The translations under genes were made by a program, and so were the position numbers. Positions 16,690 to 50,216 of a stretch of DNA of 64,000 nucleotides are shown here, piece by piece. Numbering within the stretch: position 1 is the first letter of the stretch; every line of letters begins with the position of its first letter. The notes below the pieces were generated by a model. It had not been told where the DNA came from. It saw only the letters and a program-made list of their open reading frames with translations, and searched no databases. Source of the DNA: Octopus vulgaris (taxonomy: Eukaryota); contig OX597819.1 in the NCBI GenBank assembly GCA_951406725.2, positions 97,464,001-97,528,000 of the forward strand, in the 5' to 3' direction.

Positions 16690-17189
16690 TCATGTGAGTG
16701 GCAGAGTGTTTGGTGCATTGAGTGTAGCTTGAGCAAGAATGTTGATAGCAGTGAGATCTGCTTCAGTCAGTTCAGTGCCACCACTTGAGGTACACTCAAC
16801 CTCATATTCAACTTGGTTAGGAGCAATAAAAAACAAAGGTGCTTCAACACTCTGCTCAACACTTTCAGTGGCTCGTGCTGTCTCGGTTGGGTCCTGTATC
16901 TGTTCTTCATTTTGGACAAGTTCAGCAGCAACCCAAGTTTCTTGTTGATCTGGAGTGACAGCAGCAGTGGCATCAGAAGTAAATACAGAATAGGTGTTCG
17001 AACCAACAGTTATCTTAAGCTGAGGACATGGCAAGTCAGGCTTCTTTCGTTTAGGTGCAGGGTATATTTCTCCTGTGTGCTGAGCTGCATGGCTACGTAG
17101 ATATTCTTTCCGTAAAAAGCGTCGACCACAATGCTGGCACTCATAGCGTTTCAAACCCATGTGGGCCTCAATATGGCGCTTCAGACTCC
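16690..17189 (-). CDS. ORF-B exon 14 (last): end of ZF5, ZF6, basic NLS-like motif, acidic tail
   Basis: Acceptor ttttag|GG. Translates RSLKRHIEAHMGLKRYECQHCGRRFLRKEYLRSHAAQHTGE..PKRKKP..PLT*. Confidence 0.92.
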
Positions 17190-17588
17190 CTAAAAAGATA
17201 AAGAAAAAAATGGCATTTAATGAATAAAATTATGATATCATTTTAGATAATTAATTTAAGTAAGCTGATTACAAAACACTTGTGTACACATCATAAAGAG
17301 AACAGTGTCCTGGTAACTGTTCACCACTAAATCCTAAAGTCGATGTGGTATCAACTAAACAGACAGAGGCATGCAGAGCACTCTGCCTCTCATAACCAAA
17401 AGACAGTAGCAAATAACTATTTTCTAACTTTTTACTCTATGGCTTGTATCTAAACATCACAGCTCTTGTTTAACATAAAAATAAATTTAGCAAACTAAAC
17501 ACCTTCCTCCAATTAACTCAACACTTTTAACATATACTTCATACAGAAAAAGGCAGCAGTAGAGAAGATCAAGTATTCTATTACTTAC

Positions 17589-17803
17589 TCATTGCAGTGA
17601 ACACACGGCTGCATTCTGCACATTTGTAAACTTTAGGAACTGCAGGATGCTTGGCTTCCATATGTGCATTCAAACGACTATCAGAAGCAAATGGTCGATT
17701 GCATATTTCACACTTCCGCATCTGATCCTTGTCTTTTTCATGAACTGACATATGAGCTAAAAGAGACTGGGTCCTGGGGAAACCTTTACCACAAACACTG
17801 CAC
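17589..17803 (-). CDS. ORF-B exon 13: C2H2 ZF3, ZF4, start of ZF5 (absent from ORF track)
   Basis: tttgcag|G..A|gtaagt, 215 nt. Translates CSVCGKGFPRTQSLLAHMSVHEKDKDQMRKCEICNRPFASDSRLNAHMEAKHPAVPKVYKCAECSRVFTAM; phases 2 and 1 fit its neighbours. Confidence 0.92.
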
Positions 17804-18689
17804 CTGCAAATTGGAGGTCAAAGATATTTTCACTATACACAAATAGAAAAAATTGGAAACACTTTAAATGAACTTTTATTGGAAACTCTCAACAAATATA
17901 TGGGAGTCAATATTCTATTAGACAAAGTAGCATGCCATGTGTGAGTGCACATACTATTTTGTATATATACACCAAAATACATGTGATTATACATAAACCA
18001 CTACATCTGAGCAACAGTATATGCGTATTAAAATACACCACAAGCACTCAGTCCACTCTGTGGGGTGGTTGGTATTAGGAAAGGCATCCAGCTGTAAAAA
18101 CCATGCCAAAAACAAACACAGTAGCCTGGAGTAGTCTTCAACCTGGCCAGCAGATGTTAAACAAAGATTATATATATACACACATACACACATATATGTG
18201 GAAGATTATTACCTCACTTATAAACAGGTGGGGTTAATGACAGGAAGAGCAACCTGATTTAGAAAACTCTACCTCCAACACACACTCACCTAACCCATGC
18301 AAGCATGGAAAAGTAGATGTTAAAATGATGATTATATGCACAGTCTACTGAACTGAAAATTACTACCATCCAAGTGCTTCCTTCCTCTATCCTTCACCTG
18401 TCACATCCTGCATGTCATGTTATACAGGGTCAAGGAAGGGATGGTTGAAAGGATGTTTATGCTTGCTTACAACTACATAAGCTTCCAAAACAATTAGTGC
18501 AAGCATGGTACATGCTGCCAAGTTATACTTGGTTGCAAGTGATGGCTCATCATCATCATAATCTAACATTTGTTTTCCATGCTGGCAAACCAGAGAGCCA
18601 CACTAAGCTCTATTGGTATAGATTTTACTTTGCTAGGTGGGTCTTCTCAAACACAACATCGCCAGTTGCTTCAGTCATTCATCATCATC

Positions 18690-46639: not shown

Positions 46640-48600
46640 CCTGATTTAATGATCAGTATTTCTTTATGCAGCTGTCCTCATCCATACAATCTACAGTCCA
46701 TATCACCATACTGGCACAGTTTTTGCACATATCTGATGCCTATTAAGTCTAATTTTTTTCTCAACACACTTTCACCTTGTCATACATGTACACTGACATT
46801 GCATATCCATCAGGGAATGGTAGCACCATTTGTTCTTAGTTTTCACATCCTCTACATTTATAGTCCACATTTCACAACCATGTAGCATTACTGTTCATAC
46901 ACAAATGTCATACATTTTTCATTGAGAGAGAGAAGCCTTTTGCAACCAACAGAGTGCTCTCTGAACTTTTACCAGTCAGCTCTTTTTCTAGTAGCTACAC
47001 CTTCAGAACATCCTCCTCTTCTCTACCACTTATGTTCCTTGGCTTGCACTGGGTATACTATAAGGAATTTCTGCCTACATCTATTTTACATATCAAATAA
47101 GGCCATTTACATGAAGTGATTTAGTGTTATGTCTGTTTTCCTTCTTACTAGAACTTTGAGTTATGCTAAGTTAACTTCAAGGCCTTTTGACTCCATTTTG
47201 CCTCCACACATTGAATTTTTTTCTAACTGTATTATAGAATCAGCTTAGAACAAGGTCAACAGCATAGAGGAATTCCCGAGGGTAATTGGTCATGAACTCT
47301 TTTGTAATGGCCTGGAGGACAATGATGAATAGGAAGGAAGGCGGTGAGCTGGCAGAAACGTTTGCATGCCAGGCGAAATGCTTTGTGTTATTTCGTCCGC
47401 TGCTGCATTCTGAGTTCAAATTCCACCGAGGTCGACTTTGCCTTTCATCCTTTAGGGGTCGATAAATTAAGTACCAGTTACGCACTGGGGTTGATGTAAT
47501 CGACTTAATCTGTTTGTCCCCTCTATGTTCAGTCCCTTGTGAGCAATAAAAAAAAAAAGATGAATAGGAAGGGACTGAGAACCAAACCCTAGTGAACTTG
47601 TATCAACACACTAAATTCACTGCAAACTCTCACTTTACTGACAGCACTCCTGTACATGGCTAGAACAACTCTCACCAGTCCTTTAGCTGCCCCTAGCTTT
47701 TGCAGTAACCACCAGATCTGGGATCCAGGGACCCTGTTAAAGTCTATACACCAGGTCAATGAATGCTGAGCATGACAATTTACTTTTGGCTTACTACCTC
47801 TCCTGCAATTGTCTTACTAGAAAGAGAGCCTCAGATGTACTTCTCCCTGGCACAAAACCAAACTATATCTTATCTAGGTTAATGTTGCCTAATTAGTTGA
47901 GCTGTAACAGTTTCTATAACTTTCAGACCCAGACTACAGATCTGATATGTCTGTTAATTACTTCTCTCTAAGGGATCTTCTTTAGCCTTGTAATAGGTTA
48001 CTACAATGCGGCTATACCAACTGATGGGTATAGTACCTTCTTGTACAACCTAATTAAGTATACTGGTGACTAGGCTGTCCCACTCTACCAAATATTTTAA
48101 GGGTCTCAGTAGTAATTCCTGATAGACCAGGAGCTTTCCCTGTTTTCATATCCTTAATTACTCTGCTTATAATACCACTGTTAACTAAAATAACAGGTCT
48201 CTCAGCTGTGTTCACATCAGGAAGACTCTCTTTTTCCCAAGCATCCTCCACATTCAGTAGGATTTCATTGTAACAAATCTATGCTTCTTTCTTTCCAAAA
48301 TTACCAACACCTGATTATCTCTGATACACCACATGCTGTATAACATTGACAAACCAGTTACTTTCTGCTTCTCCTCTTGCTACATAAACCTGTCACCTAT
48401 CTTCTCTTTTAGGTACAGGATATAATTCTCTGCTGACCCCATTATTCCAATTCTCAAGTCAGTCTCCTAGCTTTTATGACTTTGTCTAATCTGTTTCACC
48501 AATCATGTCATTCTCTGCTTGGATGGAACTTCACATCAGCTACAGATAATTGGTCTGTAACTCTCAGTAAGTTGTCCTGTAGGAACTTTTAGCTATCCTC
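46640..48600 (-). pseudogene. Old RTE-type reverse transcriptase relic, interrupted by a SINE
   Basis: VIKDMKTGKAPGLSGITTETLK (RT N-terminal GKAxGxxGI motif) and QAITKEFMTNYPREFLYAVDLVL (LYADDL motif). Confidence 0.7.
47339..47555 (+). mobile_element. SINE family 1 with target-site duplication
   Basis: Family head and core, A-rich tail; gatgaataggaagg occurs on both sides (about 47324 and 47559). Confidence 0.85.
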
Positions 48601-49918
48601 TATGCTGTATGTTCCTATTTCCTTTCCTTTTTGTCAAATGCTTTTCTAAATTTCTATGCACACATCATATGTGTGTGTGTGTGTATTATATATATATATA
48701 TATATATATATATATATATACACATACACACATACATAAATACATATAAATATTATATGTACACATATACAAATACATATATAAATATGTGCACACAATC
48801 AAGAAAGATAGTGTGAAGAGGAAGGAAACTGTACCCAATACAAAATATTAAGATATATTCACTAGACACTGAAAAACTTCATTATTATTACTCCATGTTG
48901 GCCACCTCTGATCTTCGAAAGATAATAAAAGATAGATCATAAAAGAGAGAGTCGGAATAATATAAAATGACCGTCCCGATATATATATCCAACCCATGCC
49001 GGCCTGGAAAGCGAACGTTAAATGATGATAAACAAAACATTATTTCTTCGAAGCTGAGTATGCAGATCCCTGCTCGAAGAGTTTTCCATTAAGCATCATT
49101 GAAATTCCATACTGCACAACCAATCTCAGTATCTCAGCATTTCATATATATATATACACATTACTTTGAGTGTGCGTGTGTGTATGTGAATGTGTGTGTA
49201 CATGGACATCGCAGAATATGTGATGCAGTGTTTATAGACATCATCAGAATTGCATGTTGCTACGTTTTTATAAATTTACGTCAGACAGGCTCAAAGAAAT
49301 TCAAGTATATTTTGAAGAGCATGAAATATTTTGTAAATTATTGTATTGTTTTATACTAATCAATGTACAAAGGGAGTAAATAATTGTGCGAGTAATATAA
49401 AGATGTGCTTCTCGGGTGTGATTAGGTCAACGAAACAGGTCAGATGATGTAAATGGGTCAATGTAGTGTTAAGTGTAGGCTCTTATGGGTTTACACCGTT
49501 TAAAAATATAGCAACATTGACGGGAATGGAACGAAAACAGAAGGAATTTGACACTCTTCCAAGCTAATATTCCAATTAAACACGTAAACTTGGAGTGAAG
49601 TGGTACTAAAGCGTTGTAATCTTCACCTTTGCAAAGTTAATCAAAGAACAAACAGACCGATGGGAAATAATGTTTGATTATTTAAGAGCGTGTATTGTTT
49701 ATTTTAGCGCCAGTGACAGTAGAGACGAAATATAGCGACCGTTATGAATCTATGGGGACATTAACTTGTCAAATTAACACCATAACAGGCAAGTTGGAGT
49801 TAAACATTAAAAAAATACAATTATAGCTTCCTATTGTAAAAGGATGGAGATTAAATAGAACAAAAGATAGTTTTCTGTTGATGGCGTGCGTGTGATCGAC
49901 TTACAAATATATATTTAC

Positions 49919-50216
49919 CTTGGTTGTCCACGTGGCATTCAAGAAAAGCTTTTCTTGAATCTTCCGCTTTATGCAGCACTTCTCTCCAGACCTGTTCTGT
50001 TGCAGGTCGTTCTGAGTCGCTCTCAGCTCCGCTTGAGTTGCTCGGGTCACTTTTCGGATCTCGCACAAAGTATAGCACGCCAGCTCTCAATCTGAAATCC
50101 TTGGATCTTTTTCTTACACACCGTTTGTCCGAGTCAGATAGTCCTTCAGGATATTGTCCGTGTCTAAGGTAATGACTAACAGCCGATAGATCGACATGCT
50201 TCTTTTTAATCTTCAT
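49919..50216 (-). CDS. ORF-A exon 1: GIN1 (gypsy retrotransposon integrase-like protein 1)-like N-terminus
   Basis: MKIKKKHVDLSAVSHYLRHGQYPEGLSDSDKRCVRKRSKDFRLRAGVLYF..KAFLECHVDNQG, donor G|gtaaat (phase 1). YLxxGxYP..KRxxRxxxxxF..LY is the GIN1/Ginger1 N-terminal signature; it joins exon 2 across a 16.7 kb intron to complete the H2C2 motif. Confidence 0.9.

Follow-up and report, generated by a model that had tools for sequence, protein, structure and literature searches.

A single-copy octopus gene that combines repeated integrase-derived modules and a non-catalytic integrase core with six C2H2 fingers

The 64,000-nucleotide stretch of the Octopus vulgaris genome analyzed here (contig OX597819.1, positions 97,464,001 to 97,528,000; hereinafter the window) carries on its minus strand a gene spanning 33.5 kb, which encodes a fusion of integrase-derived modules with an array of C2H2 zinc fingers. 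A reading made from the letters of this DNA alone (hereinafter the sequence-only reading) had described it as a domesticated host gene, and the present analysis leads to the same conclusion: with one genomic match for each exon probed and orthologs with intact frames, this is almost certainly a domesticated, non-catalytic host gene. Probably, the donor was a transposase of the Ginger1/GIN type, and the likely function is that of a nuclear, DNA-binding transcription regulator.

Exon 1, used as a query, retrieved an uncharacterized 1,424-aa protein of Octopus bimaculoides (XP_014777496; P0001) and two full-length relatives; P0001 was mapped on the window to locate the exons, after which the splice sites were fixed. 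The resulting model includes 14 coding exons (50216..16690, minus strand) separated by 13 introns, all with GT-AG boundaries (13/13), and the joined frame of 4,290 nt encodes 1,429 aa with a single terminal stop, in agreement with the 14 phase-consistent exons and intact frames of the sequence-only reading. The product is identical to P0001 in 1,383 of the 1,429 residues (97%). The Pfam scan of the joined protein, which had been suggested as a check, identified three Integrase_H2C2 stretches (E 1.3e-29) and C2H2 fingers (six by pattern count) but yielded no match to rve on the core. From the N- to the C-terminus, the protein consists of a YPYY/HHCC module (A), an integrase core, a linker, modules B and C, an acidic linker, an array of six C2H2 fingers and, at its end, a conserved helix. 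Thus, the previously proposed architecture stands with respect to the three H2C2 stretches, the integrase-core fold and the six fingers, but it has to be corrected in three details: there is one RGRP AT-hook core rather than several, the C-terminal motif had been missed, and module C contains CC instead of CxxC. The features of the gene are as follows (NED, N-terminal extension domain; NLS, nuclear localization signal; o/e, observed/expected).

49900..51900, minus strand: CpG-rich promoter region and exon 1, CpG o/e 1.25
50346-50353, promoter region: sequence CCGGAAGT
50281-50290 and 50310-50318, promoter region: two ATGGC words
49919..50216, minus strand: exon 1, aa 1-100; contains the start codon, the first His and the YPYY/NED portion of module A; phase 1 end within Gly100
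32918..33168, minus strand: exon 2, aa 100-183; remainder of HHCC finger A plus a variable linker; phase 0 end
31233..31402, minus strand: exon 3, aa 184-240; strands 1-3 of the core together with its helix 1; first catalytic Asp retained (D187)
30368..30498, minus strand: exon 4, aa 240-284; core; R250 in place of the second catalytic Asp
29714..29867, minus strand: exon 5, aa 284-335; core; G285 at the catalytic Glu position; conserved helices 5-6
28904..29609, minus strand: exon 6, aa 335-570; post-core helix without GPY/F, poly-Thr/Asn linker, a single AT-hook core (RGRP) and basic stretches resembling an NLS
27306..27531, minus strand: exon 7, aa 571-646; first half of module B; phase 0 to phase 1 in Gly646
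26056..26237, minus strand: exon 8, aa 646-706; HHCC of module B; phase 1 to 0
24547..24811, minus strand: exon 9, aa 707-795; first half of module C; phase 0 to phase 1 in Gly795
22912..23111, minus strand: exon 10, aa 795-861; H..H..CC of module C; phase 1 to 0
21021..21891, minus strand: exon 11, aa 862-1152; acidic linker, a basic stretch and the first part of finger 1
19174..19294, minus strand: exon 12, aa 1152-1192; fingers 1-2
17589..17803, minus strand: exon 13, aa 1192-1264; fingers 3-5
16690..17189, minus strand: exon 14, aa 1264-1429 plus stop codon; fingers 5-6 along with an acidic tail and a conserved strand-plus-helix motif at the C-terminus (about 16693-16821)
16541..16546, minus strand: AATAAA, candidate polyadenylation signal, ~145 nt past the stop

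The CpG o/e of 1.25 at 49900-51900, compared with 0.23-0.26 in the gene body, bears out the CpG promoter of the sequence-only reading, and this combination of a CpG-rich promoter with a CpG-depleted gene body suggests broad expression. The CCGGAAGT and ATGGC words of the promoter are those that we take to be ETS-like and YY1-like, respectively. Intron 1 (33169-49918; 16.75 kb) accounts for more than half of the total intron sequence and interrupts the first HHCC finger. The introns had been portrayed as filled with short interspersed elements, which proved to be an overstatement: repeats that recur in the window are indeed present and occupy none of the 4,290 exon bases, but, whatever their class, they cover 6,589 of the 29,237 intron bases (23%). 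In related cephalopods, complete frames of 1,508-1,560 aa occur on short assembly contigs (4.8-5.6 kb; one such frame on 52 contigs); we infer that these full-length frames on short contigs represent spliced transcripts of the relatives.

Exons 1, 7, 2 and 5 each have one match in the 2.8-Gb genome (9, 7, 6 and 5 candidates scored, respectively), a count that covers the best-scoring candidates and would not exclude distant paralogs. In the same genome, PF17921 yields 2,212 candidate integrase fingers of mobile elements, and all 150 candidates that were scored match (150/150). The last 40 residues of the protein have two genome matches, the second of which is a decayed, interrupted piece of exon 14 (~345 nt) on another contig. 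This piece (G000:C10, about 58.53 Mb) is 90-97% identical, interrupted by insertions and contains no exon junction; retrocopying and DNA capture are not distinguishable as its source. Comparison of the flanks of the gene with each other detected similarities that all belong to one multi-copy repeat, with no unique pair of terminal inverted repeats (TIRs), and when 26 Pol proteins containing a reverse transcriptase (RT) were compared with the window, the matches were confined to the HHCC exons of the gene itself, with no other Pol remains. The earlier statement that no long terminal repeat (LTR), TIR, RT or gag lies nearby accordingly holds for a unique TIR pair, Pol remains and LTR-type RT, but does not extend to RT-tail-like fragments at 53547-54425 and 36979-37254 (both on the minus strand), which presumably are LINE-like (long interspersed element); Pfam RT gave no match there. 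Neither dispersed copies with TIRs nor a loss of constraint, two of the outcomes that the sequence-only reading had named as contrary to domestication, appeared in the copy-number and conservation checks.

A phmmer search with residues 1-380 against 1.84 billion representative sequences produced 469 hits, of which the best 150 are considered here; 20 of these were given organism names, and the phylum range is based on these 20. At least three C2H2 fingers are present in 8 of the 150 hits. The ten top hits come from Haliotis, Lingula, Bulinus, Lymnaea, Pecten, Patella, Sinanodonta, Babylonia, Batillaria and Nucella; seven of these are full-length, with three modules, the core and fingers, and three are partial models, the Bulinus cluster including a full-length member. 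The cuttlefish Acanthosepion pharaonis, which belongs to the P0002 cluster, has the same architecture, so that this design is shared by cuttlefish, gastropods, bivalves and the brachiopod Lingula, and the proteins are alignable across all domains and the C-terminal motif. In a 116-row FastTree of the finger and core (after removal of 41 rows that were short or partial and of 9 near-duplicates), the orthologs form one clade in which Lingula branches first (support 1.0), and a 53-row IQ-TREE of the same regions likewise recovers a single clade that includes Lingula (100/99). Given this topology, the fusion is older than the split between molluscs and brachiopods, which occurred over about 540 million years ago. 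An octopus-specific innovation is ruled out by the gastropod, bivalve and Lingula orthologs; word-based searches had returned cephalopods alone. As a single-copy gene whose design recurs in these animals, it does not belong to the octopus C2H2 expansion, to which the sequence-only reading had linked it. Between the two octopuses, 12 of the 890 domain residues differ, compared with 34 of the 530 linker residues (p 4.5e-7), whereas no difference is seen in modules B and C (281/281 residues) or in the last 124 residues. Taken at the sequence level, these comparisons support long constraint on the gene across species.

Despite the missing rve match, the predicted structure indicates that the core has the integrase fold. 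The model of residues 1-380 (pLDDT, predicted local distance difference test, 87) matches intasome chains of foamy virus (E 3.8e-9), and VIA-align superposes the core on that of prototype foamy virus (PFV) integrase with a Z of 16.1 and a root-mean-square deviation (rmsd) of 3.1 over 166 aligned residues; residues 9-351 align with the full PFV and Ty3 integrases with Z of 14.2 and 12.7, with a large rmsd that stems from domain orientation. In the controls, the catalytic columns contain D in 57/57, D in 54/57 and E in 52/57 sequences, with a complete triad in 51 of the 57; a complete D-D-E is found in none of the 13 orthologs, all of which lack the second Asp. The octopus residues at these positions are D187, R250 and G285, the alignment register at the Glu being uncertain, and D187 is retained in cephalopods. 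Among nine orthologs, pairwise identity drops to 0.16 across core residues 245-300, against 0.42 elsewhere in the core (p 6e-8); for the same parts of intact controls, the values are 0.37 and 0.40 (p 0.26). By these alignments, selection kept the fold of the core while the active-site half drifted. The GP[YF] motif that would follow the core is absent in 13 of the 13 orthologs, and searches for the tail domains OTU and Peptidase_C48 (Ulp1) gave no match in the gene product. The retained core helices would correspond to the dimer face of retroviral structures. Integrase dimers form via a core-core interface (PMC3738965).

The hallmarks of Ginger1 transposases are YPYY, H2C2, DDE, GPY/F and an OTU or Ulp1 tail, with introns allowed, and YPYY also occurs in some Gypsy lineages (PMC2836005). 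Given the N-terminal YPYY, the gene's own start codon and the introns, a Ginger1/GIN-type donor appears probable from the sequence. The pattern Y..G.YP...F...LY is found in all three modules, the first of which lies at the N-terminus of the protein, ahead of H2C2, and the phmmer matches listed include OTU- and Ulp1-tailed transposases along with fish proteins named GIN. In the 53-row IQ-TREE, the fusion family falls outside the 27 sampled integrases of RT-bearing Pol proteins (94/87), and 14 of the 42 stand-alone matches to the module-A profile score above the best of the 28 Pol matches. Other results do not single out such a donor: overall, the module-A scores of stand-alone and Pol integrases do not differ significantly (p 0.09), and in the IQ-TREE the stand-alone integrases (17 sequences picked from the neighbors of the family in the 116-row FastTree, with bootstrap not settled and a long branch) are not a supported group (29/53), nor is the fusion family nested among them. 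The best tree does not group the family with P0036, which we take to be GIN1-like, although a joint clade is not rejected (approximately unbiased test, p 0.19). The GIN1/Ginger-type origin proposed in the sequence-only reading is therefore retained as an integrase-derived origin with a favored Ginger1-type donor, whereas the specific grouping with GIN1 is absent from the best tree.

In the octopus gene, each module is cut by a phase-1 intron in a Gly located five residues past the first His (Gly100, Gly646 and Gly795), and modules B and C are each flanked by phase-0 introns, that is, they are symmetric two-exon cassettes. Given this common phase-1 intron and the symmetric 0-1-0 phases, the modules appear to have multiplied by exon duplication. 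In a model of the Lingula protein, the three modules, each individually confident, show the same secondary structure and do not pack against one another (predicted template modeling score, pTM, 0.30). The HHCC ligands are complete in 11/11 sequences for modules A and B; module C has adjacent cysteines (CC) in most molluscs vs CxxC in Lingula. In the predicted model, the YPYY stretch superposes on the NED of PFV integrase, and given that the structural alignment spans the full PFV and Ty3 integrases, it is probably the counterpart of this domain, which contacts DNA in PFV intasomes (PMC4132020). The 114-aa domain of yeast Spt10, which includes an integrase-homologous His2-Cys2 finger, binds DNA in a sequence-specific manner and is monomeric on its own (PMC1807970). 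By analogy with these two domains, DNA binding is favored for the modules, which likely serve as additional DNA-binding domains, over the effector or oligomerization roles assigned to them by the sequence-only reading; oligomerization fits the dead core better. The module also occurs in other settings. A second bivalve type (P0040/P0174 of Dreissena polymorpha, P0084 and P0094) combines three YPYY-HHCC modules and C-terminal C2H2 fingers without the integrase core; a search of the octopus genome with one query found no P0040-like gene. Elsewhere, the module is repeated beside CaRF/ALS2CR8 domains (P0081) or THAP domains (P0082), and two krill proteins (P0061 and P0035) carry it as a tandem repeat.

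The six fingers are connected by TGEKP-type linkers. The base-contact residues of finger 5 (xRSR/xRST) and finger 6 (REY) are shared by 9 of the 10 molluscs, with Babylonia deviating at finger 6; in fingers 1-3, the cephalopods resemble Lingula, and EKYI of finger 2 is identical. An RGRP core follows the integrase in 5 of the 13 orthologs, compared with 0.015 expected from shuffles; its place is not fixed and none is present in Sepia. The octopus protein contains one canonical AT-hook core of this kind, the second site being RRGRKK. The C-terminal motif V.Y ... A..L is invariant in all eight sequences compared (8/8) and is predicted to be helical. The Sin3-interacting residues of Tet1 are A893, I894, A896, L897 and L900 (PMC6168491). 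In the C-terminal helix, the A, I/V and L are present in 8/8, which amounts to three of the five Tet1 positions, but position 896 is large (I/F/L/M) and position 900 is A (7) or V (1), so that the LxxL leucine is lacking and the helix does not fit a Tet1-type Sin3 interaction domain. This partial fit lowers the Tet1-type identity rather than that of a cofactor-binding helix, and the helix is best called a conserved candidate for cofactor binding. The octopus Sin3 gene is located at G000:C18, 0.42 Mb, and the corresponding full-length protein is P0182.

Together, these features suggest the following scenario. A stand-alone transposase, probably of the Ginger1/GIN type, would have joined a zinc-finger gene before the mollusc-brachiopod split, and the N-terminal two-exon module would have been copied twice as a phase 0-1-0 cassette. 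In the extant protein, the C2H2 fingers would read a fixed DNA site, the three YPYY(NED)-HHCC modules may contribute further DNA contacts, as does the homologous domain in foamy-virus integrase and yeast Spt10, the dead core may serve as a dimer scaffold, which would let the protein engage sites that are paired or distant, and the C-terminal helix may bring a co-regulator, with Sin3 as a candidate lead. All four roles are those we infer for the parts; a nuclear transcription regulator of this kind nevertheless appears the most likely function, and we hold it with reasonable confidence. Several observations weigh against this scenario. The module tree (53 rows, 115 columns) neither supports nor contradicts the derivation of modules B and C from A, leaving intron position to carry this step; in module C, the CxxC spacing is lost in molluscs and the ligands are lost in Pecten. 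The base-contact residues of fingers 1-4 differ between mollusc classes and fingers 4-7 of Lingula differ as well, and given this variation, the DNA site is not fully fixed. The two deviating Tet1 positions described above count against a Tet1-type recruitment of Sin3, and profile searches with the C-terminal helix found no PDB or Pfam match at E 10. Finally, Imagin, the nearest invertebrate precedent, is cytosolic (PMC12863088).

Given this precedent, an RNA-binding or cytoplasmic germ-line scaffold has to be considered: in Imagin, YPYY and H2C2 are likewise retained next to a dead core, and the protein builds up in the oocyte cytosol (PMC12863088). The six C2H2 fingers with their TGEKP-type linkers, the basic NLS-like stretches, the RGRP core in 5 of 13 orthologs and the CpG pattern, which suggests broad expression, make this rather improbable for the octopus protein. 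Transposon control would mean that the fingers and modules recognize Ginger or Gypsy ends, or that the integrase multimers of these elements are poisoned by the dead core, with a repressor recruited through the C-terminal helix; this is somewhat less implausible, although still unlikely. The modules and core retain the fold that binds element ends, the genome contains at least 150 integrase fingers by the scored matches (2,212 candidates), and octopus zinc-finger proteins have been discussed as binders of transposable elements (PMC10547256); however, a single-copy, near-invariant gene, with modules B and C identical between octopuses, is unlike a participant in an arms race, the GPY/F domain is gone, and the divergence from any element is long.

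An architectural chromatin protein, in which a dimer would bridge or loop two DNA sites by means of a tamed intasome-like scaffold rather than act as a single-promoter switch, would account for several putative DNA-binding units on flexible linkers (as in the low-pTM Lingula model) and for conservation of the non-catalytic half of the core; given that the C-terminal integrase domain required for the intasome is absent, we consider it about as improbable as the cytoplasmic scaffold. A Ginger transposon with introns, active now or until recently, was rejected outright on copy number and triad loss. Ginger1 elements may have introns (PMC2836005) and D187 is retained in cephalopods, but the second Asp is missing in all 13 orthologs, and the single copy, the lack of a TIR pair, the 33.5-kb span and the orthologs in two phyla leave this explanation a negligible probability. 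Compared with all of these, transcription regulation by a nuclear DNA-binding protein is the preferred explanation.

The gene is of a known kind, namely the domesticated integrases GIN1, GIN2 and Imagin; what is new is the fusion to a C2H2 array with repeated modules. Imagin, a malacostracan gene of 585 aa derived from Ginger1 and dated to 440-490 million years ago, is similarly single-copy and multi-exon, combines YPYY and H2C2 with a core devoid of DDE, has no TIRs and represents an ancient domestication in invertebrates, but it contains one module and is cytosolic, and C2H2 is not mentioned in the accessible text of its description (PMC12863088), whereas the octopus gene has three modules, six fingers and orthologs in two phyla. 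Vertebrate GIN1 and GIN2 are also host genes that originate from Ginger1/GIN transposases, keep HHCC and are interrupted by introns within the part that encodes the integrase; neither a C2H2 array nor repeated modules are described for them in the available portions of the respective studies (PMC2836005, PMC3424704). GIN1, GIN2 and Ginger1-5_HM have three introns in common. Unlike the octopus protein, P0036, the putative GIN1-like sequence, retains a GPY/F-type tail. Ginger1 transposases resemble the octopus gene in that their own start codon is located just ahead of YPYY, followed by H2C2 and the core, and in that introns are allowed, but they are multi-copy and have an intact DDE, GPY/F, a protease tail and TIRs, none of which is found in the octopus gene. 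Yeast Spt10 is a host transcription factor with an integrase-homologous His2-Cys2 domain of ~114 aa, which is the size of a module, and is a dimer at full length; compared by its description, as far as accessible, it has one such domain, fused to GNAT, without an integrase core or C2H2 (PMC1807970). In SCAND3, KRBA2 and the SCAN-ZNFs, integrase or retroelement-derived domains are fused to parts of zinc-finger genes, but these are mammalian and derive from Ginger2 or gag, and in the text available the integrase is fused to SCAN or KRAB rather than to a C2H2 array (PMC3575427). The SCAN-ZNFs are, moreover, a large family as opposed to one octopus gene, so the earlier analogy with them does not apply at the level of a family.

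No description of this gene, or of any mollusc fusion of an integrase with C2H2 fingers, was found in the literature searched, which did not extend to subscription journals and in which supplements may hold one. The words Ginger and GIN are absent from the accessible text of a survey of transposon-derived factors that covers Octopus and Lingula (PMC10027918), a paper naming both Pfam domains assigns them to different Bombyx transcripts, and Atlas searches returned generic integrase clusters only. In databases, members of the family are annotated as 'uncharacterized' or 'C2H2-type domain-containing'.

Among the surroundings of the gene, the last exons of a gene with a SAC3/GANP domain (Pfam E 2.1e-9) are located at 755-1153 and 2101-2463 on the plus strand, convergent with the fusion gene, with further exons upstream; we assume that this neighbor is LENG8. 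A mariner helix-turn-helix fragment (Pfam HTH_48) lies at 55532-55951 on the plus strand. About 8 kb past the end of the window, a single-frame open reading frame of 525 aa encodes tandem C2H2 fingers of the ordinary expanded octopus type (plus strand, divergent from the fusion gene; L040:7946-9520).

The domesticated integrases GIN1, GIN2 and Imagin have no assigned molecular role, and the C2H2 fusion provides a direct handle on this problem through its DNA site. The gene also illustrates cleanly how a transposon domain can be duplicated as an exon cassette and, likewise, how selection can keep the fold of a core while the active-site half goes. More tentatively, YPYY(NED)-HHCC might be a mobile host domain, repeated beside C2H2, THAP and CaRF-type domains (P0040, P0082 and P0081, respectively), and a so far unrecognized animal counterpart of the Spt10 DNA-binding domain; taken jointly with taming before the mollusc-brachiopod split, a sequence-specific factor that dimerizes via its dead core and holds DNA through three exon-shuffled modules and six fingers, and a C-terminal helix that recruits a co-repressor, this is a possibility to which we give distinctly less than even weight. 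If true, such taming of an integrase before the split would predate the dates given for GIN2 and Imagin.

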